From Candidatus Omnitrophota bacterium (lineage in GTDB: Bacteria; Omnitrophota; Gorgyraeia; Zapsychrales; Zapsychraceae): 64,000 nt of DNA. This document shows, piece after piece, positions 413 through 43,131 of this stretch. Location: the NCBI GenBank assembly GCA_023247445.1, contig JAHFGL010000008.1, forward strand, positions 13,774 through 77,773, read 5' to 3'. Position numbers and translations under genes: made by a program. Below the pieces are notes generated by a model, which was not told where the DNA came from, did not search any database, and worked only from the letters and a program-made list of their open reading frames with translations. How positions within the stretch are numbered: position 1 is the stretch's first letter; each line of letters starts with the position of its first letter.

Positions 413-1503
413 TTTTTATGATTGAACCCAAGGCACTTTTAAAAAAAATATCCCGAGTCTCTGGACATGGTGAGGCACGTATTGGCCGGGCTATGCGTTT
501 GGATCGCAACGAACGGACAACGCCATTAGCTAAGGATATTGTTGAAGCCGTATGGTCCCAAATTTCTCCGGAAGAAATTGTCGCTTATCCCGAACTGGAG
601 CCGCTTTATCAAAAACTGGCGCGATTTTTGAATGTTCTTCGCCAGAATATTCTTCTGTGCAGCGGTTCTGATACGGGTATTAAGAGTGTCTTTGAAACAT
701 ATGTGCAGCAAGGCGATGAAGTGGTCATTTTGACACCGAGTTATGGAATGTTTTCTGTCTATTGCGATATGTTTGGAGCCACGAAGATTCTTATGCACTA
801 CGATGAGGATTTTTTTCTGCCTGTAAAACGAATAACTGAGAAAATTAATCCCAAAACAAAGCTTGTCATATTAGCTAATCCTAACCATACCGGAACGGTT
901 ATCCAAGAGAAAGATATCCATTCCATCATCGAATACGCGGCCCAGTACAACACCCTCGTTCTGGTCGATGAGGCTTATCACCATTTTTATCCAGAGACCA
1001 TTATTTCTTATATCGGCCAATATGATAACTTAATTGTGGTCCGTAGCTTTTCTAAGGCTTTTGGCATTGCGGCGTTACGTGTAGGATATCTTATAAGTCA
1101 GACACAAAATATTCAAAATTTAGATAAAGTGCGATTGACGCACGAAATTACCAGTGTTTCGGCGAAGTTCGCGGCGTATCTTATTGATCATCCAGAAATT
1201 TATCAGGCATATGTGAAGGATGTTGAAGAGGGAAAAAGTTATATTGCCAAAGAATGTCAGAAAATAGGAATTACGGTGCTGCCATCAACGACTAATTTCT
1301 GTTTTTTTCGTCTGCCTGATTTTTGGGACGCGAAAGAAATGGTTCTTAGCTTAAAAAAACGAGATGTCCATATTAAAGGGCCGTTTCAAGAGGTTCCTCT
1401 TAATGGTCTTATACGGATTACCCTTGGTCCCGAAAAGCAGATGCGGGAATTTATGAATATTTTTAAAGAAATTTTAAAGGAGTGTCAAATTGAAGCGAAA
1501 TAA
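409..1503 (+). CDS. Class I/II PLP-dependent aminotransferase, histidinol-phosphate aminotransferase (HisC)/CobD-like
   Basis: Contains the SFSKAFGIAALRVGYLIS motif with the PLP lysine typical of HisC and threonine-phosphate decarboxylase. 364 aa. ATGA overlap with the upstream gene. Confidence 0.75.
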   Translation: MIFMIEPKALLKKISRVSGHGEARIGRAMRLDRNERTTPLAKDIVEAVWSQISPEEIVAYPELEPLYQKLARFLNVLRQNILLCSGSDTGIKSVFETYVQQGDEVVILTPSYGMFSVYCDMFGATKILMHYDEDFFLPVKRITEKINPKTKLVILANPNHTGTVIQEKDIHSIIEYAAQYNTLVLVDEAYHHFYPETIISYIGQYDNLIVVRSFSKAFGIAALRVGYLISQTQNIQNLDKVRLTHEITSVSAKFAAYLIDHPEIYQAYVKDVEEGKSYIAKECQKIGITVLPSTTNFCFFRLPDFWDAKEMVLSLKKRDVHIKGPFQEVPLNGLIRITLGPEKQMREFMNIFKEILKECQIEAK

Positions 1504-2287
1504 TTCTACCATCAAAAAAAGAACAAAAAGAATTCCAGTCCTTGGGGCTATCCCCGCCAGAATGGGTTCCAGCCGTTTTCCCGGGAAACCTCTAAAACTT
1601 ATCGCTGGAAAATCCATGATATGGCATGTTTGGCAGCGGGCTTTGTTAAGTGGTGTTCTGGATGACTTAGTAATTGCCACTTGTGATGAGGAGATTAAAA
1701 CAGCCGCTGAGGAGTTCGGGGCGAAAGTTGTAATGACCTCCGACAAACACACGCGGGCTAACGATCGGGTCGCTGAGGTCGCCAGTAAAATTCCCTGCGA
1801 AATTATTTTAAATATTCAGGGGGATGAACCATGCTTGAATCCACAATTAATCCGCGATGTGGTTAACCATATTCGTAAAAATCCGCATGTGCAATGTTCG
1901 AATCCCGTGGCGGTTATTGAAACAAAGGAAGAAAGAGAAACCCCCCATGATATTAAGGTTTGTTTTGATTTAAATGGAAGAATTGTTTATTTTTCCCGCT
2001 GTCCGGTTCCCTCAGATTCGGTCGTTGAGAGAAAATATCCTTGTTACCGGCAGATCCCTATCTTGGCATTCCGGAGTGAATTTTGTCAAAAATTGGCTAA
2101 GCTTAAACCGGGGCCCCTAGAGTTGCAGGAAGGCACCGATTTATTGCGGGCGGTTGAGCATAATTTACCGGTTCATATTTTAAAAACGAAATATCAAACC
2201 AAAGGCGTGGATATCCCTAGTGATATCCAAGAAGTGGAGAAACGCATGGAGAAAGATCCGATTTACAATCGGTATCGTTTCAAATAA
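1490..2287 (+). CDS. CMP-ulosonic acid synthetase family cytidylyltransferase (KdsB/NeuA-like, CTP_transf_3)
   Basis: N-terminus IPVLGAIPARMGSSRFPGKPL matches the KdsB/NeuA signature (IIPAR..S.RlPgKpL). 265 aa. Confidence 0.75.
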   Translation: MKRNNSTIKKRTKRIPVLGAIPARMGSSRFPGKPLKLIAGKSMIWHVWQRALLSGVLDDLVIATCDEEIKTAAEEFGAKVVMTSDKHTRANDRVAEVASKIPCEIILNIQGDEPCLNPQLIRDVVNHIRKNPHVQCSNPVAVIETKEERETPHDIKVCFDLNGRIVYFSRCPVPSDSVVERKYPCYRQIPILAFRSEFCQKLAKLKPGPLELQEGTDLLRAVEHNLPVHILKTKYQTKGVDIPSDIQEVEKRMEKDPIYNRYRFK

Positions 2288-2306
2288 CCATCAAGAGAGA
2301 TTACAA

Positions 2307-3407
2307 ATGAAAAAGAATATTAAAGTGGCGATTATTGGGTGCGGGCGGGTTTCTTTCCATCATGCAGAGATGCTGCGTGATGTATCCGAGGTTAAAGTAG
2401 TGGCCTGCTGCGATTTAATTAAAGAAAAAGTCGAGAAATTAGCTGGTGAACTTAACTGCCGGGCTTATCTTAATTATCATGAGATGTTGCAGGAAGAGGA
2501 AGTTGATCTTGTGACATTAGCCACACCCACTGGCGTCCATTTTGAGCATGTTCAAGATATATTAAACCATTATAAAGTGAATATCCTTTTGGAAAAACCG
2601 ATGGTTCTTAAAGTCTCGGATGGACTTGAATTAAAACGTTTAGCTGTTCAAAAAGAAGTACGGATATTTCCTGTCTATCAAAATCGTTTAAATAAGTCGG
2701 TTCAAAGAGTTAAAAGTGCCCTTTTGAATGGAGAACTGGGGGATATTGTATTGGGAACAGTAAGGGTTAGATGGTGCCGGCCCCAAAGGTATTATGATCT
2801 GGCCGCTTGGCGGGGAACGTATTCGATGGACGGCGGAGCGTATGTCAATCAGGGAATCCATTTTATTGATATTTTGAGATATTTGGCTGGAGAAATTCAA
2901 GCAGTGAACTCTTGTTTCGCTCGGCTTGGAGCTAAGCCTGAGGCTGAAGATACAGGGGTAAGTTTGCTTCGTTTTGAAAACGGCGCTTTAGGTCAATTAG
3001 AAATAACGATGGCCGCGCGTCCTCATGATTATGAAGCTTCTATTTCCATCGTTGGAAGTAAAGGATTGGCTGTTTTGGGAGGATGGTGCGCGAATAAGTT
3101 ATTGACGTTTTCTCCAAACCCGGAGGATGAACAGATTTTTAGTGAAGAAGTGCCCATGGCTTATGGATTTGGACACCGCGAGGTTTATCGTAGAGTCGCG
3201 AAGGTTTTATTAGAAGAAAATAATCCGCCAGTTGAATTTGAAGATGGGCTGAACACAATACGTTTACTGCACGCTCTTTACCGCAGTAACGAGGAACAAA
3301 AATGGATTAAGTTAGCCGATCAACTGGAATCGTTTCGTTTGGGGGAGCGCAATGAAAAGCTTTTAACCCCTTATCTAATCAAACCTCCACTGGTAAGTAC
3401 TAAATAG
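2307..3407 (+). CDS. Gfo/Idh/MocA family NAD(P)-dependent oxidoreductase
   Basis: N-terminal Rossmann KVAIIGCGRVSFHHAEML, a conserved EKP motif and ~365 aa. Start ATG 2307 with an AAGAGAG RBS. The track ORF extends upstream to 2220, inside the previous gene. Confidence 0.75.
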   Translation: MKKNIKVAIIGCGRVSFHHAEMLRDVSEVKVVACCDLIKEKVEKLAGELNCRAYLNYHEMLQEEEVDLVTLATPTGVHFEHVQDILNHYKVNILLEKPMVLKVSDGLELKRLAVQKEVRIFPVYQNRLNKSVQRVKSALLNGELGDIVLGTVRVRWCRPQRYYDLAAWRGTYSMDGGAYVNQGIHFIDILRYLAGEIQAVNSCFARLGAKPEAEDTGVSLLRFENGALGQLEITMAARPHDYEASISIVGSKGLAVLGGWCANKLLTFSPNPEDEQIFSEEVPMAYGFGHREVYRRVAKVLLEENNPPVEFEDGLNTIRLLHALYRSNEEQKWIKLADQLESFRLGERNEKLLTPYLIKPPLVSTK

Positions 3408-3413
3408 GAAAGC

Positions 3414-4472
3414 ATGGTATCCACAGATGAAAAATTAAAAGTCGGAATCGCCGGATATGGCGTTGTCGGTAAAAGAAGAAGACAATTTATCGATCAAAAT
3501 CTCCATATGAAGACTATCGCGGTATGCGATAAAACGCTGCGTAAATCAGATCTTTTTATCAATGGCGTTAAATGTTGTCGTCATTATAAAGAGCTTCTTA
3601 AAACTCCCTTGGATGTTTTATTTGTGTGTCTGCCTAATTATTTAGCCGCGGAGGTGACGATGGCGGGGTTAGAGAAGGGACTGCATGTCTTTTGTGAAAA
3701 GCCACCGGGACGAAGTGTTGCGGATATCGAAAAAGTTATTGAAGCCGAAAAAAAATATCCAAAGTTGAAATTGAAATACGGTTTTAATCATCGTTATCAT
3801 GATTCGGTGAAAGAAGCTTTAAGGATTATTCAGTCCAAAGAATTCGGCGAGATTATCAACATCAGGGGTGTTTATGGAAAAAGTAAAATCATTTCTTTTG
3901 CCAGTGGATGGCGCGCTAAACGCAAATACGCCGGCGGTGGGATACTCTTAGATCAAGGTATTCATATGGTGGATTTGATGCAGTTATTCTGTGGGAAATT
4001 TGTTGAGGTTAAAAGTTATGTTTCAAATAGCTATTGGCACCACGATGTCGAAGATAATGTTTACGCCATTTTGCGTGATAAGAACAATCGTATTGCTATG
4101 CTTCACTCGAGCGCCACACAATGGCAGCATCAGTTTTCTTTAGATATTACTTTAACCAAAGGATCTCTAAGGCTGCAAGGGATTCTTTCCGGCTCTAAAA
4201 GCTATGGACAAGAACAGCTCGTTAAGGTCCGCCGCAGTGAGGCGGATATCGGCACGCAAAGTGAAGAGGTCATTAATTATCTAAACGACAATTCCTGGCG
4301 GGATGAAGTCAATGAATTTGCCGATAGCATCGTTAATGATAAGCCTACCTATGCGGGAACAATCTTTGATGCCCTTTCCACTATGCAGTTAGTGTACAAA
4401 ATCTATAGCGCCGATGCCGAGTGGAAAGAGAAATTTCTCAAAGAAGATTCCGCTAAGATTTTAACAGTTTAG
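3414..4472 (+). CDS. Gfo/Idh/MocA family oxidoreductase
   Basis: KVGIAGYGVVGKRR Rossmann, CEKP motif, 352 aa. Confidence 0.7.
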   Translation: MVSTDEKLKVGIAGYGVVGKRRRQFIDQNLHMKTIAVCDKTLRKSDLFINGVKCCRHYKELLKTPLDVLFVCLPNYLAAEVTMAGLEKGLHVFCEKPPGRSVADIEKVIEAEKKYPKLKLKYGFNHRYHDSVKEALRIIQSKEFGEIINIRGVYGKSKIISFASGWRAKRKYAGGGILLDQGIHMVDLMQLFCGKFVEVKSYVSNSYWHHDVEDNVYAILRDKNNRIAMLHSSATQWQHQFSLDITLTKGSLRLQGILSGSKSYGQEQLVKVRRSEADIGTQSEEVINYLNDNSWRDEVNEFADSIVNDKPTYAGTIFDALSTMQLVYKIYSADAEWKEKFLKEDSAKILTV

Positions 4473-4486
4473 AAATAGGAGACACT

Positions 4487-5107
4487 ATGAATACATTAGA
4501 AGAAATTTTTAGAGAGAGCAGTCTGCAGACAGATTATTTCAAACGGTATTGTCATTATCTGCAAAAATTGATTTCTGAGATTGATGTTGAATCGGTTAAA
4601 AAAGTTGTGGATTGTTTTCTGGAAGCTCGATGTAATAACAAAACAATTTATTTCGCTGGTAATGGCGGCAGCGCGGCAACGGCCTCGCATTTTGCTCAGG
4701 ACATGGGGGAGATTGGAAGAAAAATCCGCGGCAAAGGCTTCCGAACGCAGAGTATCAATGATAATGTCGCCGCGCTAACGGCTATCAGCAATGACTACAG
4801 CTACGATAGTATTTTCTCTATGCAGATCCAATACAACTTTGACGAAAAGGACATTTTAGTTGTTATTTCAGCCAGCGGCAACAGTCCGAATGTCATTAAT
4901 GCCGTCAATCTGGCTAAAGCTAAAGGCGGAATAACAGTTTGTTTGGTGGGATTTGATGGTGGTCGTTTAGCCCAAATTTGCGACCAGGTCATTCATATCC
5001 AAAGCAAAAAAGGAGAATACGGTCCCGTGGAAGATATTCACCTTATTTTAAACCATATGATTGTTTCCTACTTGATGATGGAATTAAAAAAAGAGAGTGT
5101 GTCTTGA
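4487..5107 (+). CDS. gmhA: SIS-domain sedoheptulose-7-phosphate isomerase (GmhA family)
   Basis: GNGGSAATASHFAQD, ISASGNSPNVINA and VGFDGGRLA align motif-by-motif with E. coli GmhA. 206 aa. Confidence 0.75.
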   Translation: MNTLEEIFRESSLQTDYFKRYCHYLQKLISEIDVESVKKVVDCFLEARCNNKTIYFAGNGGSAATASHFAQDMGEIGRKIRGKGFRTQSINDNVAALTAISNDYSYDSIFSMQIQYNFDEKDILVVISASGNSPNVINAVNLAKAKGGITVCLVGFDGGRLAQICDQVIHIQSKKGEYGPVEDIHLILNHMIVSYLMMELKKESVS

Positions 5108-6030
5108 AACACAAAGTTCTTATATCGACATCAACTTTTGGAGTATCCGATGACACGCCTTTAAAACGGCTTGCCCAAGCGGGATTGGAGGCCAACATTA
5201 ATCCCTACAAGCGTAAACTTTCTAAAGAAGAATTGCTAAATTTGTTGCCTGAGGTGACAGGATTAATCGCGGGCCTGGAAACATTAGATGAGGAAGTAAT
5301 GTCCCGGTCGGATTTAAAAGTTATCTCGCGTTGCGGGTCAGGATTGTCCAATATTGACATGCGGGCCGCAGAGAGATTAGGCATTAAAGTATGTAGCACA
5401 CCGCGGGCGCCGACGCAAGCGGTAGCGGAATTAACAATCGCCTGTCTGTTAAATTTATTGCGAGGAGTTTCCACCATGGATCAGGATTTACATCAAGGCC
5501 GTTGGAATAAACAGACCGGATTGCAATTAGAGGGCAAGACTATTTTGATCGTAGGCTGGGGCAGGATCGGACGGCGTGTGGCTGAATTGTTAAGACCGTT
5601 TCATGTGCGGATTATCGTTGTGGATCCATTTGTGCAAAACATTACCAAGCAGTTTGAATTTTTAACGCTGGCTCAGGGTTTACCTTTAGCGGATGTTATT
5701 ACCCTGCACTGCAGCGGTGAAGATTGTTTTTTTTCCGCTGGCGAGTTTGCTTTGATGAAAAAAGGAGCGTTTCTTTTGAACGCGGCCCGGGGAGGATTAA
5801 TTGACGAAAAAGCGTTAATAAAAGCCATTGATGAAAGACTTGTTGCCGGAGCTTGGTTGGATACTTTTGAACAAGAACCTTATGTGGGAGAATTAATGCG
5901 TTATCATCAGGTCCTTTTGACGCCTCATGTAGGATCTTACACCGAAGAATGCCGAAGGCAAATGGAGTTAGAGGCGGTTGAGAATCTTATTTTTGCTTTT
6001 GAAGAAATAGAAAGTCGATGTCAGATATAG
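5104..6030 (+). CDS. D-isomer-specific 2-hydroxyacid dehydrogenase (phosphoglycerate/erythronate-4-P dehydrogenase-like)
   Basis: NAD-binding motif GKTILIVGWGRIGRRVAELL plus a catalytic-domain R/E/H pattern. Probable TTG start at 5104 after an AAAAAGAGAG RBS. The track ORF start at 4978 overlaps gmhA. Confidence 0.7.
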   Translation: MKHKVLISTSTFGVSDDTPLKRLAQAGLEANINPYKRKLSKEELLNLLPEVTGLIAGLETLDEEVMSRSDLKVISRCGSGLSNIDMRAAERLGIKVCSTPRAPTQAVAELTIACLLNLLRGVSTMDQDLHQGRWNKQTGLQLEGKTILIVGWGRIGRRVAELLRPFHVRIIVVDPFVQNITKQFEFLTLAQGLPLADVITLHCSGEDCFFSAGEFALMKKGAFLLNAARGGLIDEKALIKAIDERLVAGAWLDTFEQEPYVGELMRYHQVLLTPHVGSYTEECRRQMELEAVENLIFAFEEIESRCQI

Positions 6031-6764
6031 ATCTGCTGGAAAATTTAGATATCGCTAAAGTAGCGGCTAAGACAGCTGGACAATTTCTCATCAAGCAACA
6101 GCATTTGGCTCGACGTGTGTCTCAGGAACTCTTTCATGATGTGAAAATCAACGGAGACGTTGAGGCCGAGCAGATCATCCTGGAATATTTAAGGAGGCGC
6201 AGTAATTTTGCCATATTATCAGAAGAAACAGCTTCGCCAGATAAAGGGAATCAAGATTATCGTTGGATTGTTGATCCCATTGATGGGACTTTAAATTATT
6301 TTCAAAAGATTCCATTTTGTTGTGTTTCTATTGGTCTTTGGCAAGGGCAGAAGCCAATTTTAGGAGCCGTTTACGATTTTAATAGAGATGAACTATTCTC
6401 AGGAATCGCTGATGAGAAGGCATGGCTTAATGATGTTTTTGTGAAAGTGAGCAAAACCAAAACCAAAGAAAAAGCGGTTCTCTGTACAGGCTTTCCGGCT
6501 CTCACAGACTATTCTCAGGATGCTATACAAAATTTTGTCAAACAAATACAGAATTATAGAAAGATCCGTCTTTTGGGTTCCGCAGCTTTATCCATTGCGT
6601 ATGTCGCCTCAGGGAAGGTAGATGCTTATTGTGAGCGTGGTATTATGCTTTGGGATATCGCCGGTGGGATTCCTTTGTTGTTGGGCGCTGGTGGAAAAGT
6701 TCACATGGAAAAAGCAACCGAAGATAACAGTTTCAATGTTTATATCAGCAATGGATACATCTAA
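6018..6764 (+). CDS. Inositol monophosphatase family phosphatase (SuhB/CysQ/HisN-like)
   Basis: WIVDPIDGTLNY metal-binding motif. 248 aa. Confidence 0.7.
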   Translation: MSDIDLLENLDIAKVAAKTAGQFLIKQQHLARRVSQELFHDVKINGDVEAEQIILEYLRRRSNFAILSEETASPDKGNQDYRWIVDPIDGTLNYFQKIPFCCVSIGLWQGQKPILGAVYDFNRDELFSGIADEKAWLNDVFVKVSKTKTKEKAVLCTGFPALTDYSQDAIQNFVKQIQNYRKIRLLGSAALSIAYVASGKVDAYCERGIMLWDIAGGIPLLLGAGGKVHMEKATEDNSFNVYISNGYI

Positions 6765-6798
6765 TCCGATGTGAAGCAGAAAGTCATGGGTCATAACT

Positions 6799-7893
6799 AT
6801 GCCAGATTATTGTGAGTATTCTTTTTCTGCCGATTTTGTAAATCGGCTGCGTAAGTACGTAACATCAAGGGAATACCAAGATGTTGCAACTTATTCAAAA
6901 AGCGAATACTGGCAGCATTTTTCCGATGTTATTGACATTCGTTTCCTTGATAACAAGGTCATGTTAAAGGGGGAGTCAGGCTTTTATATCCCACAAAGAA
7001 AAGATGTGCAGAAGAGAGTCAAAAGAAATGTGACTAAGCTCATTCGGGAACCTTTGAGTTTAATACCATTTTTAAGAAGGAAAATTGGAATGCAGACATC
7101 AGAGATAAAATTATTAAATTATTTTGATGCTTTTGATAAAGTGATGGGCCACGATCGTGTTGCCAATATCGTCCTATCTCCCAATCGAATTAATTTCAAG
7201 GAATTGGCACAAAAACCGGGAATAATTTCTTCTGTTGATGATATGCGCCAGCAATTTTTTGCAAAAGACAAGTACAGTTTAAATGCTCAGATAGTTGAAG
7301 CTTATTATTATTACAACCTGTTGTCTGGTTTTCTAGACCCGACTTCAATTAAAACAGCATTGGAGATAGGTGGGGGAAACGGTAACCTGGCGTCATTATT
7401 TTATAGTTCAATGGATAATTGTACCATCATAAATGTAGATTTGCCCAAGACGCTTTGTCTGGCCATTGTGTTTATCGCAGATTTATTCCCGCAGGCAAAA
7501 ATGCTGTTGCCTCATGAAGAGCGTTCACAAGATTTGAATCATTACGATTTTATTTTTCTTACACCAAAGCAAATTTATATGATCGAGGATAACACCATTG
7601 ACTTGGCGATTAATACCGATTCATTTCAAGAAATGCCTCATCGGCAGATTAGTGAATATTTTAAGTTAATTCAAAGATGTTGTAAGAAGAATGCCTATTT
7701 CTTTACTTCTAATAGAGTAGAAAAGATTCCTTGTGGGCCCAATAATCAGCAAGAAACTTCTGAAACGCCCACCCGCTTTTCAGACTATCCATGGGATTCA
7801 GCCAATGAAGTGTTGGTTTACGAAATATGTAGACTAAAGAGGTTAGTTCAATTAGATGATGTGTTTATTCGTCTGGAGAGAGTAAAAAAATAA
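6799..7893 (+). CDS. Putative SAM-dependent (sugar O-)methyltransferase
   Basis: LEIGGGNGNLA looks like glycine-rich motif I of class I methyltransferases, followed by acidic INVDL. Otherwise unrecognised. 364 aa. Confidence 0.4.
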   Translation: MPDYCEYSFSADFVNRLRKYVTSREYQDVATYSKSEYWQHFSDVIDIRFLDNKVMLKGESGFYIPQRKDVQKRVKRNVTKLIREPLSLIPFLRRKIGMQTSEIKLLNYFDAFDKVMGHDRVANIVLSPNRINFKELAQKPGIISSVDDMRQQFFAKDKYSLNAQIVEAYYYYNLLSGFLDPTSIKTALEIGGGNGNLASLFYSSMDNCTIINVDLPKTLCLAIVFIADLFPQAKMLLPHEERSQDLNHYDFIFLTPKQIYMIEDNTIDLAINTDSFQEMPHRQISEYFKLIQRCCKKNAYFFTSNRVEKIPCGPNNQQETSETPTRFSDYPWDSANEVLVYEICRLKRLVQLDDVFIRLERVKK

Positions 7894-31184: not shown

Positions 31185-31874
31185 ATGATAGAGATCAATA
31201 AAAAAAGACATGTTGTGGTGATTCCCGCACGCAGAGGGAGCAAAGGGTTTCCATTTAAGAACCGTCTTTTATTTGATGAGACGGCTGATTTTATCGATCG
31301 ACACGGCTGGTTTGATCAGGTGATTGTTTCGACTGATGATGAAATCGTTGAAGAAAAGACCATGGCCAGAGGGTATGTAATCCATGCTCGTCCGCAAGAG
31401 CTTAGCGGCGATGCCGTTTCCATCAAAAGGGTAATGCAATCTGTTATCCATGACTTGAAATTATCAAAAGATACTATCATGTGGTTGTTTTATTTGTCTA
31501 TTGTGTATAAAAATATATCAGATTTTCTAAAGGCAAAACAGATTATAGAAGAAGGGAAAGTCTTGAGCATATGTGGTTTTGTTCCGGCTAAATCGCACCC
31601 CTTCACATGTTGGTCTTATGACCAGAGGAATGGTATATTAAAGCAGTATATTAATAACGATATCTACCGCCGGCAGGATCGTCCCCGGGCTTGGACGTAT
31701 CACCATTACATCAGCTGTTTTAAAACCGCAGAAATAGAGCACCTTAACAGCGAACTTATTAATAATAAGACGTATCCCTTTTTTCTACAAAAGCAGAGGA
31801 TAGATCAACTGCTGGAAATCGATACTCCCGAGGAATATGAACAATGGAAGTCATTAGCTCAAAAAATCGTTTAA
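31185..31874 (+). CDS. Acylneuraminate cytidylyltransferase family (NeuA-like CMP-nonulosonate synthetase)
   Basis: VVIPARRGSKGFPFKN. 229 aa. Confidence 0.75.
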   Translation: MIEINKKRHVVVIPARRGSKGFPFKNRLLFDETADFIDRHGWFDQVIVSTDDEIVEEKTMARGYVIHARPQELSGDAVSIKRVMQSVIHDLKLSKDTIMWLFYLSIVYKNISDFLKAKQIIEEGKVLSICGFVPAKSHPFTCWSYDQRNGILKQYINNDIYRRQDRPRAWTYHHYISCFKTAEIEHLNSELINNKTYPFFLQKQRIDQLLEIDTPEEYEQWKSLAQKIV

Positions 31875-36511: not shown

Positions 36512-37693
36512 ATGATTAAAAGAATAATTTTTTTAAGAGAAACTCATTTTAACTTCACGAGAAATCAGACCGCCTGTCTCGACCTTTTAAAAAAGAACGG
36601 TTTCCGAGTTGAAGTGTGGGATATGATGCCTGTGTTACATGCTGAATTTCTAAAAAGTTATACTTATCCGCATTCTTATAATTATGATGAGTTAACTGTG
36701 TTTCATGATAAGACACAAGCGTATCGTGTTTTATCGAATTTGTCGCAAAGTGATTTTGTCATTAATGATATTAGTTATTTATTCTGGAACTTAGGAATCT
36801 ATCAGGCACTAAGCAAATCAAAGGCACTGTACGCCGTTTTTTATGCTAACGCTGTGCCCATCTATAAAGACGGCCGAAAGCAGCTGCTTAAAAAAAGACT
36901 GAGACTCTTTTTGGGTTTTAAGCGCCCCCATTCAAAATTTTTAGTCCTATGGAAAAAATTATATATGCGGTTACCTTTTCGCTGGCTTGGGATTCGGCCA
37001 GCGAGTTTGATTCTCGCTGGCGGCGAACGGTGTTTTATTTACCGCTATCCGGTTGATAAAAATACCAAAGTTCTTCAAATCCATTCCTTAGATTATGATT
37101 TGTATTTAAGAGATAAAGAAAAGCCAACTACGGTAAAACCCACAGCTGTTTTTATAGATGAATTTCTCCCTTTTGCGCATGATAGTCTTTTTGACGGCAG
37201 GGGAATTCCCATCACTGCCGAAAAATATTATCCGTTGCTTAACCGTTTTTTTGATCGAGTCGAAGAGAAGACAGGTTTAAAGGTGATTATCGCGGCCGGT
37301 CCGCGGTCTTATTACGAAAGTTTGCCGGATTATTTTAATGGCCGCCAATGTATTAGAGGAAAAACAATTGATTTGATTAAAGAATCATCCTTGGTTTTAG
37401 CGCATCGCAGTACGGCTGTGAGTTTCTGTAATCTTTATAATAAACCGGTTATTTTCTTGACCTGTTCTGATTTGGAGAAACAATGTGATGGTGGTGAAAT
37501 TAAAGAAATGGCCGAATGGTTTGGCAAAAAACCCGTATTTGTGGAAGATGGCAACACAATTAATTGGCAGGAAGAATTAACTGTCAGTAAAGTTCATTAC
37601 GATCGTTATCGCCAGAGCTATATAAAAACAAAAGATTCCCCGGAATTACCTTTTTGGCAGGTCGTAGCCGATCAATTGAAAGAGAATTTCTAA
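36512..37693 (+). CDS. Hypothetical protein with a TagF/KpsS-like GT-B C-terminal motif
   Basis: 393 aa. ESSLVLAHRSTAVSFCNLYNKPVIFL resembles the TagF nucleotide-binding motif. Confidence 0.35.
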   Translation: MIKRIIFLRETHFNFTRNQTACLDLLKKNGFRVEVWDMMPVLHAEFLKSYTYPHSYNYDELTVFHDKTQAYRVLSNLSQSDFVINDISYLFWNLGIYQALSKSKALYAVFYANAVPIYKDGRKQLLKKRLRLFLGFKRPHSKFLVLWKKLYMRLPFRWLGIRPASLILAGGERCFIYRYPVDKNTKVLQIHSLDYDLYLRDKEKPTTVKPTAVFIDEFLPFAHDSLFDGRGIPITAEKYYPLLNRFFDRVEEKTGLKVIIAAGPRSYYESLPDYFNGRQCIRGKTIDLIKESSLVLAHRSTAVSFCNLYNKPVIFLTCSDLEKQCDGGEIKEMAEWFGKKPVFVEDGNTINWQEELTVSKVHYDRYRQSYIKTKDSPELPFWQVVADQLKENF

Positions 37694-37694
37694 A

Positions 37695-39578
37695 ATGGAT
37701 AAAAATATGGATTCAAATTTGAATAAAGAGTATATCATTATATGCGGGGAAAATAAATTTCAAGGCTTATGGCTTTTTTTGTGGTGCTGGATAAAGAAAT
37801 GCAAGGGTTTGATTATGGATAATGGAAAGAAATCTAGTTTTGCTAGAAATTTGTTGTGGTTTCCTCCTTTCAAGAAATATATCATGGAGCAGGTAAGAGA
37901 AAATCAGGTTGGGTTAGGCCAGTATAAAGGTTTATGGTATAAAGTCAATAAAGAAGCCATTGATCTTACCATAGAATTTTATAATCAGGAAATCGCATCC
38001 AAACCAGCATTCATCGGTTACTACAACAAAATTTTGCGTACCGTTAAATTTGAAGCCTATATTAAAAAAGAAATTTCTTTTCAAATATTTTCTGTGCTTA
38101 AGGAGCTGCACCTTGTAAGGTTACAATCCTTATGTGACACTTCGATTTTAATAGCCCAAACCCCTCTTAATGAGTTTATTGTTGAATACATGTTGAAAAA
38201 TTACGGGACGAAATACCGAGTGAAATATATACGTCCGAGAATCAATCTATTTATTTTATTTTTTTATTACGGTCAATTATTAAAAGAGTTTGTCCATAGA
38301 GGGATAGCCTTTGGAAAGACAAGAAGGAAGTATAAAATTTCCAAGGAGGCTACATGGAATTTTTTTCGGGGGACATTACGGGATGATATCTTGGTCGATG
38401 GCAATCAAATTACGCAGAAGGATGTATTGCTCTTGGAAATCGATTCTGATTCTCCTCAGAGAGCCAGGTCATTTCAGGAAGCAAGAGAGAAAGGATTTGA
38501 TACGGTTTCCTTGCACAAAATTAAAATAAATATTAATAAAGATATTTATCATATCTTATATTTTTATCTATTTGTTCCTTTGATTTTGTATGTTCAATTG
38601 TTTTGGGCGCGCAGAACATATCTTTTTAATTTTATTGTTTTGTTTCATTGGAGATGCTTCCCATGGGAGGTGTTTCTTAATGCTTTTGATGTCGATTATT
38701 ATATCTCTGTTCGAGATTGGGGCGACGTGGAGGAGACAATTATTCTTAACCGCTATGATGCCAAAAGTGTCTTTTTTCAGAGAAGCGATCTCTCTTTTCC
38801 TCACTCACATCTGCACGCTTTTATTGCTCATAATCTCTATTTTATCTGGGGAGATATACATTATGATTTTCATGCGAAGAATTATTTTGTAGATAAAAAG
38901 ATTGATATCGGATGCATCTATAAAAGGGCTTGCAATCAGGCTGTCGATAAAGCGGATAGCGTGCGAAACCGCATCCCATTGTTTAACAAACAGAAAAAAA
39001 CAGTCACTTTTTTTGATAATTCGTTTCAGGATACGATCCATATTACCACGGCTTTTTTCCTGGAATTTTTGGAAATGGTCAAGAAATTCTGCCAGACCCA
39101 TAAGGACGTGAATGTACTATTTAAACCTAAAAAAGATCAAGAGGATGTCTTGCGGATGTTGGATGGCTCGGCGCGGCAGTATAACTTAATTTGGGATGGA
39201 CTTAAAGAATGTGAAAATTTCATTTATTTGGATCCGTGGGAATGGAGCATAGAGAGTGTCATTGCCATTTCCAATGTGTGTGTTAACATGGGAATCACGA
39301 GTCCTTCGACGATTGCCTTAATATGCGGCAAAAATGCTCTTTATTACGATAGCACCGGTAATAGCGAAGAGCATATATTGTTTAGAAAACACGCAGGAAC
39401 AATTGTTTTTGATAATAAGGAGGATTTGTTTCGACAGATCGATAATATTTTGGAAGGCAGATTTAATTGCCTGGATGTTTTTAGCAAAAAAGAGCTTAGA
39501 GAATATGATATATTCGATGATGACAAAGCGCTGGAGAGATTAAATACTTATTTGTCTGATGGTTTAGCCAAAAATTAA
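37695..39578 (+). CDS. Hypothetical protein, possible GT-B-like transferase with a central TM segment
   Basis: 627 aa. Hydrophobic stretch LILYVQLFW. C-terminal ISNVCVNMGITSPSTIALICGKNALYY is GT-B-like. Confidence 0.3.
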   Translation: MDKNMDSNLNKEYIIICGENKFQGLWLFLWCWIKKCKGLIMDNGKKSSFARNLLWFPPFKKYIMEQVRENQVGLGQYKGLWYKVNKEAIDLTIEFYNQEIASKPAFIGYYNKILRTVKFEAYIKKEISFQIFSVLKELHLVRLQSLCDTSILIAQTPLNEFIVEYMLKNYGTKYRVKYIRPRINLFILFFYYGQLLKEFVHRGIAFGKTRRKYKISKEATWNFFRGTLRDDILVDGNQITQKDVLLLEIDSDSPQRARSFQEAREKGFDTVSLHKIKININKDIYHILYFYLFVPLILYVQLFWARRTYLFNFIVLFHWRCFPWEVFLNAFDVDYYISVRDWGDVEETIILNRYDAKSVFFQRSDLSFPHSHLHAFIAHNLYFIWGDIHYDFHAKNYFVDKKIDIGCIYKRACNQAVDKADSVRNRIPLFNKQKKTVTFFDNSFQDTIHITTAFFLEFLEMVKKFCQTHKDVNVLFKPKKDQEDVLRMLDGSARQYNLIWDGLKECENFIYLDPWEWSIESVIAISNVCVNMGITSPSTIALICGKNALYYDSTGNSEEHILFRKHAGTIVFDNKEDLFRQIDNILEGRFNCLDVFSKKELREYDIFDDDKALERLNTYLSDGLAKN

Positions 39579-39592
39579 TAATGGGGGTTGAT

Positions 39593-39769
39593 ATGGCAGA
39601 AGAGCTATTGAAAGGAAATTTTAAAGTTAAAAATCCCGTTAAGGTAGAGAAGCAAGCAAAAAGTGAGCCAGTTCACGAACAGCTTCGTAAAAGGGCGCTT
39701 GCTTCCCTTGGTGGGAGTATGGTTTACATGGAACGAAAAAATCTCACTTGGGACGGAGAAAAAGGTTAA
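39593..39769 (+). CDS. Small Lys-rich hypothetical protein (58 aa), translationally coupled
   Basis: GGGGGTTGAT RBS before ATG 39593. Its stop TAA overlaps the ATG of the next gene (TAATG). Confidence 0.3.
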   Translation: MAEELLKGNFKVKNPVKVEKQAKSEPVHEQLRKRALASLGGSMVYMERKNLTWDGEKG

Positions 39770-40791
39770 TGCTAGATACAGCCGTAAAAGAATTTGAAAA
39801 TATTGTCGAAAAGATCCCACAGATTGGGATAAAGGTTCATGGCCAGAGGATATTAGAGCATGCCCGGTTGAACTTGCCTGATATGACTAAAACGATTAAA
39901 GATTTGCCCGTGCTTGATTCCGTAAAGGCTCGTTCGGCCGTCATTATTAGTGCTGGTCCAAGCGTCCGGCGGCAGAATTCCATCCAGCGTATCGTAGAAT
40001 CAAAATATAAAGGAACAATTATCGTCACGGACGGTTCTTATGCGGCTTCTATTAAAGCAGGTTTATTTCCGGATTTTATGCTGACCCTTGATCCTCATCC
40101 TACCAGAATGGTCCGCTGGGTTGGGGATCATGACTTTGAAAAGCACACGGCTAACGATGATTATTTTACCCGGCAGGATTTAAATATCGAATTCCGCCAG
40201 AATTCCATTCAGCAAAATGAAGAACATATTATTCTTGTTAACAAGCATGGACATTTAACCAAAGCTATTGTGGCCTCTACCGCGCCGCGTAATCTTGTGG
40301 CGCGTTTAAAAGAAGCCAAGTTTGATATGTATTGGTGGCATCCTCTCGTGGATGATCCGTACGCGCCGCAGAGCTTGACGCGCAAACTGTATGCTATAAA
40401 AAAAATTCCTTGCATGAATACGGGGGGAACCGTTGGCGTAGCGGCTTGGGTGTTCGCTAATTCTATTTTAAAAATACCAACCATTGGCCTTGTGGGCATG
40501 GACTTTGGTTACCCTGCAGAAACGCCTATTGAAAAAACTCAGACGTATTATGAGCTTATTGAACATTTAGGCGGCAAAGAAGAGCTAGAACAATGTTTTA
40601 TCGAATATGAGTTTCCATTGACGAAAGAAAAATTTTATACCGATCCGACGTATTTTTGGTACAGAAAAAATTTTTTGGAACTGTTTGCGTATTCGACGAC
40701 GAAAGCCTATAATTGCACGGAAGGGGGGACGCTCATCGACGAGCGCATCCCTTGCGTTACGTTGGAAAAATTTATCAACCACACTAAGTAA
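39769..40791 (+). CDS. MptE-like/DUF115 protein (Maf-like putative nonulosonic-acid transferase)
   Basis: AVIISAGPSV...VTDGSYAASIKAGLFPDFMLTLDPH and GGTVGVAAWVFANSILKIPTIGLVGMDFG match the MptE/Maf fold pattern. The track ORF starts at 39748. Confidence 0.5.
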   Translation: MLDTAVKEFENIVEKIPQIGIKVHGQRILEHARLNLPDMTKTIKDLPVLDSVKARSAVIISAGPSVRRQNSIQRIVESKYKGTIIVTDGSYAASIKAGLFPDFMLTLDPHPTRMVRWVGDHDFEKHTANDDYFTRQDLNIEFRQNSIQQNEEHIILVNKHGHLTKAIVASTAPRNLVARLKEAKFDMYWWHPLVDDPYAPQSLTRKLYAIKKIPCMNTGGTVGVAAWVFANSILKIPTIGLVGMDFGYPAETPIEKTQTYYELIEHLGGKEELEQCFIEYEFPLTKEKFYTDPTYFWYRKNFLELFAYSTTKAYNCTEGGTLIDERIPCVTLEKFINHTK

Positions 40792-40811
40792 AAAGACCAA
40801 AGGGAGAGGAA

Positions 40812-42392
40812 ATGGCCAAAATTTTAATGATCAATCCAGTTATTCGGGAAGAAAGCGCCCCCCAGAATATTCCCTATGGGCTTACTCTCTTAGCTGGTAT
40901 CGCCTTAGAAAAAGGTCATCAAGTCCAATTTTATGATGAAAATGCTTGGCGTAAAGGGGATAAAGTCATCGCTGAGGTCTGTAAAGCTGACGATTGGGAT
41001 GTGATCGCTATCGGCGGTCTGACAACGACGTATGGATCGATAAAAAAGATTTTGAGGATTGTAAAAGAGGTCTCACCGAAATCATTTATTATTGCTGGCG
41101 GAGGTATTATCACCAGCATGCCCAAAGAGATTATGGCATGGTTAAAGGACATCGATCTGGGAATTATCGGTGAGGCTTTTGTTACCTGGCCGGAGGTTTT
41201 AGCTAAGATTGACGATAAAGATTTTGATTTTTCTAAAACCCTTGGTGTCTGTTATCGCGATAAAGAAGGAAATCCGATTCTAACAAACGTTCGTCCAAAT
41301 ATCAAAGATTTGGATGTCCTTCCGTATCCCGCTTGGGATTTGTTGCCGCTGGAAATTTATTTTAAAAATTCCCAGAACCTGTTAAGTGAAGCCGCTTTCA
41401 TGGCTAAAAGACGCATTGATGTCATGGGAAGTCTGGGATGCAGTCTCATCTGCAAATTCTGTTGGCATTTAGGAACAACAGGAGATATGCTTGTTGAGGA
41501 AAATGAGGCAGGCATTAAAGATGTCCGGTTTACCTATGGACGTAATATCCGTTATTTCAGTCCTCGATACATTGTCGACATGGTTAAAATTCTTGTGAAG
41601 AAGTACAATGTTGACCATGCTTATTTTGTTGATGAGAATTTTATGACCATGGATGTTGCCAGCGGCCGCACGTGGCTGAAGGAACTTAGTGATTTATGGA
41701 TCAAGGAGGGATTGCAGCCCACATCGCGCAGGGATGGTGTGCCTGATGACCAGAATAAGGGGGGTGTTTTTTGGTCAGGGACCAGTCATGCCAGTTTGGC
41801 CCAGAAAGAAACTTTGGATAAAATGTATCAGGCGGGTTGCTCGTCATTAGTCTACGGCATTGAGTCATTCGATCCAGTTATCCTCAAGAACCTAGGAAAG
41901 GGTGTCACCCAAAAACATAATCTAGAGGCGCCTAGAATATGTATGGAATCGGGTATTATCCCTGTTCCCAATATTATGATTGGTTTTCCGCAGGAGACAT
42001 TTTTCAGTATACGCACCACTATTGAATGCATGATAAAGCTAGGGATTCATGCCAAACCTCATTTCGCCACACCCTATCCGGGATCAGAATGGTACTATAC
42101 TTATAAAGACAGTATTCTTGAACAATATAATGGTGATCTTGAAGCTTTTATTGAAGATTTAGGGGACGCCTCGAAAATCACGGCTGTTATTTCCCATAAT
42201 TTTTCTCCAGCACAATTGTTAGGATTGCAGATGATTGTCATGCAGCGAAATTTACGCCTATTAGACCAAACAGAAAAACAATGGGCGGCAGCTAATGCGC
42301 TTATGAAACCGCTGGCTGTTCCAAAGGGATCATTTCATATGGTAAACAAGAAAATCCAAGCACCCATAGAAGAGGCCTCCAGGGCGCTATAA
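40812..42392 (+). CDS. B12-binding radical SAM enzyme
   Basis: N-terminal B12-binding-like domain, LGCSLICKFCWH cluster motif. 526 aa. Confidence 0.7.
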   Translation: MAKILMINPVIREESAPQNIPYGLTLLAGIALEKGHQVQFYDENAWRKGDKVIAEVCKADDWDVIAIGGLTTTYGSIKKILRIVKEVSPKSFIIAGGGIITSMPKEIMAWLKDIDLGIIGEAFVTWPEVLAKIDDKDFDFSKTLGVCYRDKEGNPILTNVRPNIKDLDVLPYPAWDLLPLEIYFKNSQNLLSEAAFMAKRRIDVMGSLGCSLICKFCWHLGTTGDMLVEENEAGIKDVRFTYGRNIRYFSPRYIVDMVKILVKKYNVDHAYFVDENFMTMDVASGRTWLKELSDLWIKEGLQPTSRRDGVPDDQNKGGVFWSGTSHASLAQKETLDKMYQAGCSSLVYGIESFDPVILKNLGKGVTQKHNLEAPRICMESGIIPVPNIMIGFPQETFFSIRTTIECMIKLGIHAKPHFATPYPGSEWYYTYKDSILEQYNGDLEAFIEDLGDASKITAVISHNFSPAQLLGLQMIVMQRNLRLLDQTEKQWAAANALMKPLAVPKGSFHMVNKKIQAPIEEASRAL

Positions 42393-42408
42393 TATTCATT
42401 TATTTGTT

Positions 42409-43131
42409 ATGTATGAATCTCTAAAAATTTTATCTTTTATCGGGGCCAGGGTCGGGTCTAAAGGACTGAAAAATAAAAATATTCTTGATCTTGCAGGTAA
42501 ACCCTTGATCGCGTGGACAATTGAAGCTTCCCGATGCTCAAAATATATCGACCGCACCATCGTCTCAACTGATGGCAAGCAGATTGCCGAGATCGCCAAG
42601 CAGGCGGGAGCGGATGTGCCATTTTTGCGTCCCACGGAATTAGCAACGGATGAATCTCTGCTTGATGAGGCGATGCAACATTGCGTCCAATGGCTGGCCA
42701 ACAACGAGCATCGTGTTTATGATTATATTTTGCTTCTTCAGCCGACTTCACCATTAAGAACGGCAGAACACATTGATCAAGCCGTGGAATATTATTTTAA
42801 AAATAAAAAGACACGACAGGATATTCTGATATCCGTTACAAGGGCCCCGAAAAAGGTGGGATGGTTAATGCAGCAGAATCAGTCTGGATATATCGGCTTT
42901 TGCTTTGATGACTCTCAACGAGGTTCGCGGCGCCAAGATTTGCCCGAGTATTATTTTCCTAACGGCGTTATTTATTTGGGGCTAACAACGGTAATGCAGC
43001 ATTTGAGCAAGAATGTTTCCCGCCTGCTGCCATTTATGATGGAAAGCGAAGTTTCCATAGACATTGACTCAAAAAAAGATTTGCAAGAAGCCATGAAAAT
43101 TTTGAGAAATCGGATTGGAATCAATGTATGA
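42409..43131 (+). CDS. Cytidylyltransferase, CTP_transf_3 family (NeuA/PseF/LegF-like)
   Basis: ILSFIGARVGSKGLKNKN. 240 aa. Confidence 0.7.
   Translation: MYESLKILSFIGARVGSKGLKNKNILDLAGKPLIAWTIEASRCSKYIDRTIVSTDGKQIAEIAKQAGADVPFLRPTELATDESLLDEAMQHCVQWLANNEHRVYDYILLLQPTSPLRTAEHIDQAVEYYFKNKKTRQDILISVTRAPKKVGWLMQQNQSGYIGFCFDDSQRGSRRQDLPEYYFPNGVIYLGLTTVMQHLSKNVSRLLPFMMESEVSIDIDSKKDLQEAMKILRNRIGINV

Follow-up and report, generated by a model that had tools for sequence, protein, structure and literature searches.

Three distinct KdsB/NeuA-superfamily genes, each in a conserved gene neighbourhood of its own, in a long co-directional surface-glycan locus of a Candidatus Omnitrophota bacterium

The 64,000-nucleotide stretch analysed here (hereafter the window) comes from a Candidatus Omnitrophota bacterium (assembly GCA_023247445.1, contig JAHFGL010000008.1, positions 13,774 to 77,773 of the forward strand) and is a single long one-strand surface-glycan locus. 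All 56 of the 56 open reading frames (ORFs) of at least 150 aa lie on the + strand, as does every window gene discussed below, and the genes are tightly packed and often overlapping. Three of them encode members of the KdsB/NeuA superfamily of cytidylyltransferases, which transfer cytidine monophosphate (CMP) to 2-keto sugar acids: CT1 (1490-2287; 265 aa, TTG start), a KdsB-like cytidylyltransferase; CT2 (31185-31874; 229 aa), a deep-branching enzyme of the CMP-nonulosonate-synthetase fold that belongs to what we call subclade A; and CT3 (42409-43131; 240 aa), a CMP-nonulosonate synthetase of the NeuA/LegF type. The most economical reading, because each enzyme sits in a conserved cassette of its own, is that the locus serves three separate CMP-activated 2-keto sugar acids; we regard this reading as probable, with real room for doubt.

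The initial annotation had proposed these three genes from the DNA alone, and its coordinates proved exact; all three are intact members of PF02348 (CTP_transf_3). They score 165 (CT1), 28.6 (CT2) and 96 bits (CT3) against a Pfam gathering cutoff of 22.6 bits, the match of CT2 being confined to its N-terminal residues 10-85. Each nevertheless aligns over its full length with a solved enzyme: residues 20-255 of CT1 with residues 6-239 of KpsU, residues 8-218 of CT2 with residues 21-237 of the Vibrio cholerae NeuA, and residues 6-232 of CT3 with residues 21-244 of the same protein. CT2 and CT3 are 25% identical over 212 aa (30 bits); CT1 can be aligned with CT3 over only 66 N-terminal residues (29% identity) and with CT2 over only 61 residues (33% identity). 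The claim that the three are clearly diverged is therefore borne out, with at most 25% pairwise identity over most of the length and 29-33% over short N-terminal stretches. The N-terminal signature that they had been said to share, IPAR...SxRhPgK, is loosely common to all three (IPARMGSSRFPGKPL in CT1, IPARRGSKGFPFKNR in CT2 and IGARVGSKGLKNKN in CT3), with the reservation that CT3 has IGAR and not IPAR. The TTG start of CT1 is credible because an AGGAG lies 7 nt upstream and the sole alternative start would delete the P-loop.

As far as the sequences tell, all three enzymes are complete and show no sign of inactivity. Clustering with IspD- or TarI-like cytidylyltransferases, which had been named as grounds for doubt, is not seen for any of them, by family models and by the fold of CT2. 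The IspD model PF01128 gives 16.7 bits for CT3 (cutoff 27) and a ribitol-5-phosphate cytidylyltransferase model gives 18 bits (cutoff 166); neither model matches CT1 or CT2. In the phylogenetic placement that the initial annotation had called for, the three fall into separate clades with bootstrap values of 96-100. Among homologues that carry a taxon label, the closest relatives of the three proteins are from metagenome-assembled genomes (MAGs) of Omnitrophota, Deltaproteobacteria and Elusimicrobiota; cultured or plasmid-borne relatives reach at most 27.7% identity for CT2 and 39.8% for CT3. CT1, CT2 and CT3 are thus three distinct and apparently active members of the KdsB/NeuA superfamily. 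The subfamily names first given to them needed revision: 1490-2287 is indeed KdsB-like and belongs to a paralogous subfamily, 31185-31874 is no plain NeuA, and 42409-43131 is NeuA/LegF-like and not PseF.

CT1 passes the NCBIfam KdsB subfamily model NF003952 (242 bits, cutoff 193), so that automatic annotation would label it as KdsB. The cutoffs of the equivalog models TIGR00466 (155.0 against 155.2, a borderline case) and NF003948 (154.6 against 281) are missed, as is that of NF009905 (251.2 against 255). Thirteen solved KdsB/KpsU sequences match it at 101-131 bits, and the Aquifex enzyme is the closest solved match to its C-terminal domain (58 bits). The P-loop (IPARMGSSRFPGKPL, aa 21-35), the QGDEP motif (NIQGDEP, about aa 108-114) and the GVD motif are kept. 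The first of these reads IPARM instead of IPAR(Y/F), and neither of the two motifs that mark the C-terminal domain of canonical KdsB, xH(I/V)G(I/L)Y(A/G)(Y/F) and LEQLR, is present; in CT1 the corresponding pocket motifs are RQIPILAFR (aa 187-195) and TDLLR (aa 216-220). The CT1-type motifs recur in 120 of the 120 nearest homologues (43-100% identity). The canonical ones are kept in E. coli KpsU and KdsB, in the enzymes of H. influenzae, V. cholerae, P. aeruginosa and Aquifex, in the kdsB products of Bacteroides, Prevotella and Fusobacterium, and in a plasmid-borne copy from Streptomyces, a sample that covers four phyla (Pseudomonadota, Aquificota, Bacteroidota and Fusobacteriota) besides the plasmid. 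At the level of the domain, the C-terminal part of KdsB is known to bind 3-deoxy-D-manno-octulosonate (Kdo) and to form the dimer (PMC3149649). The CT1 clade has a bootstrap of 96/100 and lies inside a KdsB superclade supported at 100/100. On these sequence characters CT1 is a KdsB-like enzyme of a large paralogous "Q-motif" subfamily, unlike every canonical KdsB examined. The Streptomyces copy is the best plasmid match to CT1 (38%); it has canonical motifs and an uninformative context. On the plasmid of Streptomyces sp. NBC_01471 (L096, 8983-9726) this "kdsB" stands isolated and carries a Gene Ontology term for the lipopolysaccharide (LPS) core, in a Gram-positive host without LPS.

The genes beside CT1 were compared with six contexts of its clade outside the window (L006 with its short duplicate L007, L008, L009, L092-L094 and L095), all of which are glycan clusters. 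Among the genomes that carry a CT1-clade gene is GCA_041690595.1. Directly upstream, overlapping CT1 by 14 nt, is a HisC-like class I/II aminotransferase gene (409-1503; PF00155, 160 bits; hisC model 242.6, cutoff 276.55) whose best PDB matches are HisC enzymes; it also stands next to the CT1 homologue in L006 and L007, a pairing kept in close relatives only. Downstream follow two Gfo/Idh/MocA oxidoreductases assigned by Pfam (2307-3407 and 3414-4472), with NCBIfam scores of the IolG and UDP-GlcNAc 3-dehydrogenase kind that stay below cutoff; a SIS_2 (GmhA-like) sugar-phosphate isomerase (4487-5107; PF13580, 66.6 bits; gmhA model 109, cutoff 209); and, both identified with Pfam and NCBIfam, a PGDH-like D-2-hydroxyacid dehydrogenase (5104-6030) and an IMPase-family phosphatase (6018-6764). 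A putative sugar O-methyltransferase of the NanM family (6799-7893; TIGR04371, 121 bits, cutoff 44) and a 651-aa LIC13510-type "surface carbohydrate biosynthesis protein" (7936-9891; TIGR04326, 63.6 bits, cutoff 250) complete the set.

Much of this set recurs. Homologues of the 3414 oxidoreductase are found in L006 (85%), L008 (42%) and L009 (65%), and Gfo genes occur also in L092-L094; SIS or SIS+CBS genes adjoin the CT1 homologues of L006, L008 and L009, the KpsF-like SIS+CBS gene of L009 being the only such case among the CT1-clade contexts. A 2-Hacid_dh gene adjoins the CT1 homologue in L006, L009, L092-L094 and L095, and an IMPase-type Inositol_P gene in L009 and L092-L094. Counted by context, the recurring partners are Gfo/Idh/MocA (5/6) and PGDH-like 2-Hacid_dh (5/6). 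Distant homologues of the LIC13510-type protein, 500-650 aa long, are present in all six, which makes 7936-9891 the best candidate for the transferase of the CT1 product. Its family profile finds only sub-threshold matches to GT-B glycosyltransferases in the PDB (E about 0.3), and a single-sequence AlphaFold2 (AF2) model has a mean predicted confidence (pLDDT) of 34. A paralogous relation to the 627-aa protein at 37695 described below was considered and dropped, the two having no detectable similarity.

It might be argued that CT1 is simply the housekeeping CMP-Kdo synthetase for the LPS core, placed by chance at the edge of a glycan locus, which would leave only two special ulosonic acids. 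The NF003952 score and the near miss of the kdsB equivalog (155.0 against 155.2) fit such a role, the best PDB matches of CT1 are all KdsBs, and the absence of a KdsA (DAHP_synth_1) domain from the window ORFs of at least 150 aa would agree with an outside supply of Kdo. Against it speaks that CT1, like each of its 120 nearest homologues, has other residues in place of both H-x-G-(I/L)-Y and LEQLR, as does the setting: the housekeeping kdsB genes of Bacteroides, Prevotella and Fusobacterium lie among unrelated housekeeping genes, whereas the CT1 clade is found in glycan clusters in six of six cases and with recurring partners. Kdo and LPS-core genes (kdsA, kdsC, kdsD, waaA, lpx) accompany CT1 neither in the window nor in the six outside contexts. 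We therefore consider a housekeeping role unlikely.

A different doubt is whether at least one of CT1, CT2 and CT3 acts on something other than an ulosonate, yielding a CMP- or CDP-linked non-sugar or a phosphodiester donor. CT1 is where this idea has its footing, since its surroundings resemble amino-acid or amino-alcohol phosphate metabolism (the HisC-like, PGDH-like and HisN/IMPase-like genes) and no keto-acid synthase is identified for it. All three enzymes are PF02348 members, however, and a 2-keto sugar acid is the substrate of each characterised relative that was recovered; the models of the IspD, TarI and LicC type are weak or absent; one NeuB-family synthase goes with CT2 and another with CT3, and the aminotransferase adjoining CT1 is a feature of close relatives only. 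This alternative is very improbable, and for the phosphodiester-forming CMP-transferase role that the initial annotation had offered as a second option we find no evidence in favour.

Under the preferred reading, the substrate of CT1 would be a 2-keto acid other than Kdo, formed independently of KdsA. The enzymes at hand for such an acid would be the SIS isomerase, the Gfo/Idh/MocA oxidoreductases, the PGDH-like dehydrogenase and the IMPase-type phosphatase, with the LIC13510-type protein at 7936 as the candidate transferase. An aldose phosphate supplied by the isomerase may be oxidised twice in succession, or, in relatives, an HpcH/HpaI aldolase may be used. In two distant relatives (L009, 8756-9526; L095, 9769-10545) the CT1-clade gene is followed directly by a gene for an HpcH/HpaI-type pyruvate aldolase, which suggests an aldolase-based, KdsA-free route to a Kdo-like acid. 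An origin of the CT1 partners in a KdnA/KdnB-like pathway to Kdo8N is unsupported: the aminotransferase resembles HisC, the 60 listed of its 73 PDB matches include no structure of the KdnA type, and the window has no Fe-ADH gene. A DHQ-synthase-like gene occurs only in the relative L006.

CT2 stands out among the three in being hardly recognised by sequence models. It scores 45.2 bits against the PseF model (cutoff 205.7), 37 bits against the closest solved NeuA, and 17.8 bits (19-20% identity) against the solved CMP-Kdn synthetase 9t4z. Its motifs are a P-loop (aa 13-27), RRQDRP (aa 162-167) and EIDT (aa 211-214), and nine residues are invariant among 36 aligned members of its family (R16, S19, K25, D52, R69, R162, Q164, D165 and D213). 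From the alignment to NeuA and from what is known of that enzyme, we take these to represent the NeuA P-loop, RRQD and C-terminal acidic motifs. In place of the QPTSP sugar-pocket motif of NeuA, LegF and CMAS, CT2 has FYLSIVYK; the consensus at this position is LFYLPxxYK in subclade A and LYLTYPxR in its sister, subclade B. An AF2 model built from the family alignment has a pLDDT of 94.4 and a predicted TM-score (pTM) of 0.89. In a Foldseek search with this model the top match is 1eyr (TM 0.81), followed by 6ifd, 9t4z, 1qwj (mouse CMAS) and 9ftc (Aeromonas CMP-Pse synthetase); all of these are CMP-nonulosonate synthetases. KdsB structures come lower, with a TM of about 0.65 and an rmsd of about 8 Å, and those of IspD lower still (about 0.57).

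The CT2 family is monophyletic (bootstrap 100/100), and so is subclade A (100/100). An exhaustive search of 1.84 billion representative proteins with the CT2 profile returned 166 matches at E <= 1e-30 and 7,275 at E <= 1e-10, the latter amounting to the wider NeuA family; the motifs of subclade A are present in only about 10 of the best 70 matches. Judged by alignment and by the predicted structure, CT2 is a member of a rare, deep clade that combines the NeuA fold and catalytic residues with an altered sugar pocket. In subclade B, five of ten long proteins scanned (P0331, P0340, P0341, P0346 and P0360) are fused to a GT29 sialyltransferase-like domain and others to RgpF, GT8 or GT2; some of the GT29 fusions also carry RgpF, GT8 or GT2, and the proteins reach 1,161 aa. 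These GT29 fusions lend indirect support to the idea that the CT2 family feeds sialyltransferase-like enzymes.

The neighbourhood of CT2 was compared across 19 loci with CT2 homologues. Besides close relatives, these represent single-cell genomes of Pelagibacteraceae, the cultured Candidatus Pelagibacter sp. HIMB1495 (L015), a Desulfovibrio MAG, Marinimicrobia, Thermoplasmata and a thaumarchaeote. The genome collection was scanned with the pattern RRQD[LY]P, outside which the RRQDRP of the window CT2 itself falls. Immediately upstream of CT2 is NeuB-2 (30322-31170; PF03102, 236 bits), a NeuB-family synthase without a SAF domain that is 32% identical to NeuB-1, the other NeuB-family synthase of the window. 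Its homologues (35-88% identical) adjoin CT2 homologues in 15 of the 19 loci, and three of the four exceptions are truncated contigs. Before it lies a HAD-IIIA phosphatase resembling KdsC and Kdn-9-phosphate phosphatase (29812-30312; best model NF058599), with homologues next to CT2 homologues in L002, L003, L013 (51%) and L025. Downstream are an AP_endonuc_2 (xylose-isomerase-like) TIM barrel (31844-32761), a Gfo/Idh/MocA oxidoreductase (32758-33816) and a NodU/CmcH-type carbamoyltransferase (33827-35650), all three assigned by Pfam, and then a PtmA-like short-chain dehydrogenase/reductase (SDR) (35647-36474; PtmA model 115, cutoff 350). Homologues of the TIM barrel are present in 14 of the 19 loci, of the SDR in 13, and of this Gfo type in L002, L003, L013 and L017; most of the loci have a SIS_2 isomerase and/or a KdsC-like HAD, and some a Gfo/Idh/MocA or class-III aminotransferase gene. 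In L002 and L003 the carbamoyltransferase is absent and an Aminotran_3 gene with two methyltransferases stands instead; because of this swap, tailoring of the CT2 sugar differs between strains. The cassette is followed at 36512-39578 by a 393-aa protein and a PFTS-motif polysaccharide biosynthesis protein (627 aa, at 37695; TIGR04417 34.9, cutoff 100; PF27878), both conserved in L002, L003 and L011.

A phosphorylated route to Kdn is documented in B. thetaiotaomicron and Prymnesium, where a sugar phosphate is condensed with phosphoenolpyruvate (PEP), the product is dephosphorylated and the acid is activated with CMP; in many bacterial pathways the sugars are unphosphorylated and no phosphatase is required (PMC6200933). 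SAF-less NeuB enzymes form an environmental group without an assigned product (PMC8208679). The phosphatase in the CT2 cassette points to the phosphorylated route, as in the documented Kdn pathway. It is proposed that NeuB-2 condenses a sugar phosphate with PEP, that the KdsC-like HAD strips the phosphate and that CT2 activates the resulting acid, which the Gfo/Idh/MocA oxidoreductase, the TIM barrel, the SDR and the carbamoyltransferase would tailor. The conserved combination of Gfo, TIM barrel and SDR suggests an oxidise-epimerise-reduce type of tailoring, and the relatives with an aminotransferase suggest a late amination of the CT2 sugar. We found no paper describing either the CT1 or the CT2 cassette.

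Of the three enzymes, CT3 is the conventional one. Against solved structures it scores 145 bits with 6ifd (V. cholerae), 105 with 1eyr (N. meningitidis), 102 with the Pse synthetase 9ftb (Aeromonas) and 59 with the Kdn synthetase 9t4z (Prymnesium). It has the P-loop (aa 11-24), LLLQPTSPLR (aa 108-117), RRQDLP (aa 174-179) and DID (aa 218-220). The PseF equivalog TIGR03584 is failed (132.3 bits, cutoff 205.7), and for this reason the label NeuA/LegF-like replaces the PseF/LegF-like of the initial annotation. The clade of CT3 has a bootstrap of 97/100; its grouping with the V. cholerae NeuA specifically reaches only 49/100.

Directly upstream of CT3 is a B12-binding radical SAM gene assigned by Pfam (40812-42392), 74-88% identical and in the same position in L010, an Omnitrophica MAG, and in L011. 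It is preceded by a gene for an MptE/Maf-like protein, a candidate nonulosonate transferase (39769-40791; PF01973, 59 bits; PseD model, 49.5 bits), and by a conserved small ORF of 58 aa (39593-39769). The order small ORF, MptE, B12-radical SAM, CT3 is kept in both relatives; the small ORF itself is 57-64 aa long in relatives and occupies the same position in L002, L003, L010 and L011. Further upstream in the window are NeuB-1, a SAF-containing nonulosonate synthase (25515-26630; PF03102, 244 bits, plus SAF) that is NeuB/LegI-like rather than PseI-like (NeuB_NnaB 364, cutoff 399.65; PseI 234), and a NeuC-type hydrolysing UDP-GlcNAc 2-epimerase (28644-29801; TIGR03568, 415 bits, cutoff 235.9). 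Between them lies another B12-binding radical SAM gene, of the KedN5-like C-methyltransferase family (26599-28644; Pfam; NF033712, 194 bits, cutoff 700), whose position is kept in L002 and L003. The NeuB+SAF gene of L010 shares 73% identity with NeuB-1 and lies 8 kb upstream of the CT3 homologue, with a NeuC-type gene also upstream, so that the whole set of NeuB+SAF, NeuC, MptE, B12-radical SAM and CT3 recurs there, and in part in L011. The three B12-radical SAM enzymes of the window (26599, 40812 and 51135) are mutually distant, and in L006 cobalamin salvage and transport genes (1116-7337) lie directly upstream of the glycan locus. The split transketolase that follows CT3 was rejected as its functional partner: it is absent in L011, where the CT3 homologue abuts an RfbF homologue.

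NeuC, NeuB-1 and CT3 would constitute a minimal complete set for a Neu5Ac-type acid. In this scheme NeuC makes a free 2-acetamido sugar, NeuB-1 condenses it with PEP and CT3 activates the product, for which the Maf/MptE-like protein at 39769 is the likely transferase. The family scores do not separate Neu from Leg, so a Leg-type product is also conceivable; no LegB, LegC or LegH equivalog is present in the window. Two B12-radical SAM enzymes, those beside NeuB-1 and CT3, may modify the sugar of this route by C-methylation of the nonulosonic acid, which may give C-methylated, ten-carbon sialic-acid-like sugars. For all three routes, the substrates, the order of the steps and the pairing of enzymes with transferases are predictions from gene content.

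With two NeuB genes in one co-directional locus and the NeuA fold and catalytic residues in both CT2 and CT3, which are 10.5 kb apart, the two enzymes might overlap in function and act on the same nonulosonic acid or on close derivatives of it, for example before and after a modification. Several observations argue otherwise. The two share only 25% identity and QPTSP is replaced in CT2; in taxa without the CT3-type synteny, CT2 homologues are still accompanied by a SAF-less NeuB and tailoring genes of their own; and the CT2 cassette includes a phosphatase, a sign of a phosphorylated route, while none is required for the route by NeuC and NeuB-1 (PMC6200933). Overlap of this kind seems to us improbable.

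Several points weigh against the reading of three separate acids with cassettes of their own. For CT1, the KdsB subfamily model is passed and TIGR00466 is missed by only 0.2 bits. PMC3149649 speaks at the level of the domain, and that the particular residues changed in CT1 bind Kdo is our presumption, for which we draw also on the complex structures of KpsU and KdsB. Since no C-C bond-forming enzyme (keto-acid synthase) for the CT1 product is recognised in the window, a KdsA encoded elsewhere in the genome may supply Kdo as the substrate of CT1. For CT2, its branching outside all characterised Neu, Pse, Kdn and CMAS enzymes has a bootstrap of only 58/100, the GT29 fusions belong to subclade B and not to the subclade A of CT2 itself, and the HAD phosphatase at 29812 misses both relevant cutoffs (Kdn-9-phosphate phosphatase 99.8 against 180, KdsC subfamily 93.8 against 106.95). 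A distance of 12-17 kb separates CT3 from NeuC and NeuB-1, and its pairing with them rests on synteny in a few relatives. Against these stand the family membership, the intactness, the conserved catalytic motifs, the separation into clades and the co-occurrence of genes across taxa, all of which are observed, and we retain three acids as the probable outcome.

Whether the three sugars meet in one molecule is a separate matter. The initial annotation had spoken of up to three CMP-activated acids in one glycan; three acids are likely, and nothing links the sugars to one polymer. They may instead feed different glycoconjugates, such as an O-antigen or capsule and a protein glycan. The window offers several possible outlets, with an ABC exporter (23725), a Wzy-like protein (57083), YfhO (48723), the Maf/MptE-like (39769), PFTS (37695) and LIC13510-type (7936) proteins, and GT2 and GT4 glycosyltransferases, and its modules vary independently, the block 43128-52769 being absent in L011 and the carbamoyltransferase swapped in L002 and L003. 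The 56 co-directional, tightly packed and in many cases overlapping ORFs argue the other way, an arrangement that suggests coordinated expression. We hold separate glycoconjugates to be a serious possibility, somewhat short of an even chance.

At least one of the CT1 and CT2 cassettes might make an ulosonic acid that has not been described, a possibility that we put forward tentatively. For CT2 it may be a nonulosonic or higher acid that is built from a sugar phosphate, reshaped and carbamoylated.

The remaining genes fit the picture of a surface-glycan locus. Family scans of the window identify two NeuB-family synthases, a NeuC-type epimerase, a KdsC-like phosphatase and a Maf/MptE-like protein; three B12-radical SAM enzymes, a radical SAM/SPASM enzyme, two split transketolases, several SDRs and DegT aminotransferases; a carbamoyltransferase, a sulfotransferase, an HldE-like bifunctional enzyme and two sugar-1-phosphate nucleotidyltransferases; and the ABC exporter, the Wzy-like protein, YfhO and several glycosyltransferases (GT2, GT4). 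The two DegT aminotransferases score below all model cutoffs. A fourth CTP-using enzyme, of a family unrelated to CT1-CT3, is an RfbF-type glucose-1-phosphate cytidylyltransferase (52817-53590; 284 bits to 1tzf) whose product is a CDP-sugar; it is adjoined by an SDR (53575-54708), and the two together point to a branch of the locus that makes a CDP-hexose (6-deoxy sugar). Both transketolases have their N and C halves as separate genes (17528-19299 and 43128-44899), the N halves being 48% and the C halves 32% identical; their part in sugar biosynthesis may be a two-carbon transfer. The first adjoins an APH-type kinase (16446) and the radical SAM/SPASM enzyme (19277). The second opens the block 43128-52769, which also holds a GT2, a DUF4915 protein, a sulfotransferase, an SDR, YfhO and the third B12-binding radical SAM enzyme (51135-52769); because the block is missing from L011 (L011, 8001-9499), it is regarded as a variable or inserted module. 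In the HldE-like bifunctional heptose enzyme (11015-12547) the order of the domains is swapped relative to the HldE model, with the adenylyltransferase at residues 18-149 and the kinase at residues 190-489. The GC content of the window is about 41% and its GC skew is uniformly positive (0.09-0.16), going down to 0.04 at 48-52 kb; 64 kb of co-directional genes is unusually long for a glycan locus.

Ulosonic acids such as sialic, legionaminic and pseudaminic acid, Kdn and Kdo are key features of cell surfaces in recognition, in the adsorption of phages and in evading immune responses. The CMP-activated form is the only one in which they have been observed to date (2026 preprint), which makes the cytidylyltransferase a good genomic marker for each of them. 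In Magnetospirillum, unexplained CMP-activated C10 ulosonic acids have been reported to which no genes are assigned (bioRxiv 10.64898/2026.04.20.719630), so the chemical space of these acids is not exhausted; the C-methylated sugars that the B12-radical SAM enzymes beside NeuB-1 and CT3 may give would be of this C10 kind. Several such enzymes per organism are not surprising in themselves; the interest lies in two uncharacterised clades with conserved, portable cassettes, which present annotation flattens to "KdsB" for CT1 and to "acylneuraminate cytidylyltransferase family protein" for CT2. The CT1 clade is a large family spread over many uncultured lineages, and the CT2 clade is rare, with a cassette that archaea have in common with the SAR11 bacteria abundant in the sea. 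In annotation, the motif pair H-x-G-(I/L)-Y / LEQLR, as against Q-x-(P/C)-I-(L/I) / D-(L/M)-(L/M)-R, could separate true KdsB from CT1-type paralogues. Should the products prove to be new sugars, microbial surface glycans would span a wider chemical space, and the gene sets, each with some of synthase, phosphatase, activating enzyme, tailoring enzymes and candidate transferase, would be available for enzymatic synthesis.

Several CMP-activating enzymes in one organism have a precedent in Campylobacter: the flagellar glycosylation island of Campylobacter jejuni encodes PseF, PtmB/LegF, Maf proteins and the SDR PtmA. The window likewise has more than one CMP-nonulosonate synthetase, transferases of the Maf/DUF115 type and a PtmA-like SDR. 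It differs in having neither flagellar genes nor equivalogs of PseB, PseC, PseH, PseG or PseI, in the KdsB-like nature of its third enzyme, and in the CT2 clade, which is absent from Campylobacter-type clusters.

With KdsB and KpsU (EC 2.7.7.38; E. coli 3k8d and 1gq9; Aquifex 2y6p) CT1 shares fold family and length, the P-loop IPARxxSxRxPGKPL, the metal/catalytic motif QGDEP and the C-terminal GVD. Its clade departs from them in reading IPARM for IPAR(Y/F), xQ(V/I)(P/C)I(L/I) for xH(I/V)G(I/L)Y and xD(L/M)(L/M)R for LEQLR, the latter two in the domain that binds Kdo (PMC3149649), and in its location in glycan clusters with dehydrogenases and phosphatases and without kdsA, kdsC, kdsD or waaA.

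The CT2 cassette follows the same three-step logic as the Kdn pathway of the B. thetaiotaomicron BT1713/BT1714 type and of Prymnesium parvum (PMC6200933), with a NeuB-family synthase, a C0-type HAD phosphatase and a NeuA-fold cytidylyltransferase. To this it adds the AP_endonuc_2, SDR and Gfo genes, with or without an aminotransferase or carbamoyltransferase, and CT2 branches outside the CMP-Kdn synthetase 9t4z. CT3, finally, aligns end to end with the NeuA/LegF enzymes 6ifd and 1eyr and has all their motifs, and its locus contains NeuC, NeuB+SAF and Maf-like genes as in classical clusters; what sets it apart from these is the B12-radical SAM genes conserved beside CT3 and NeuB-1, which do not characterise classical clusters.

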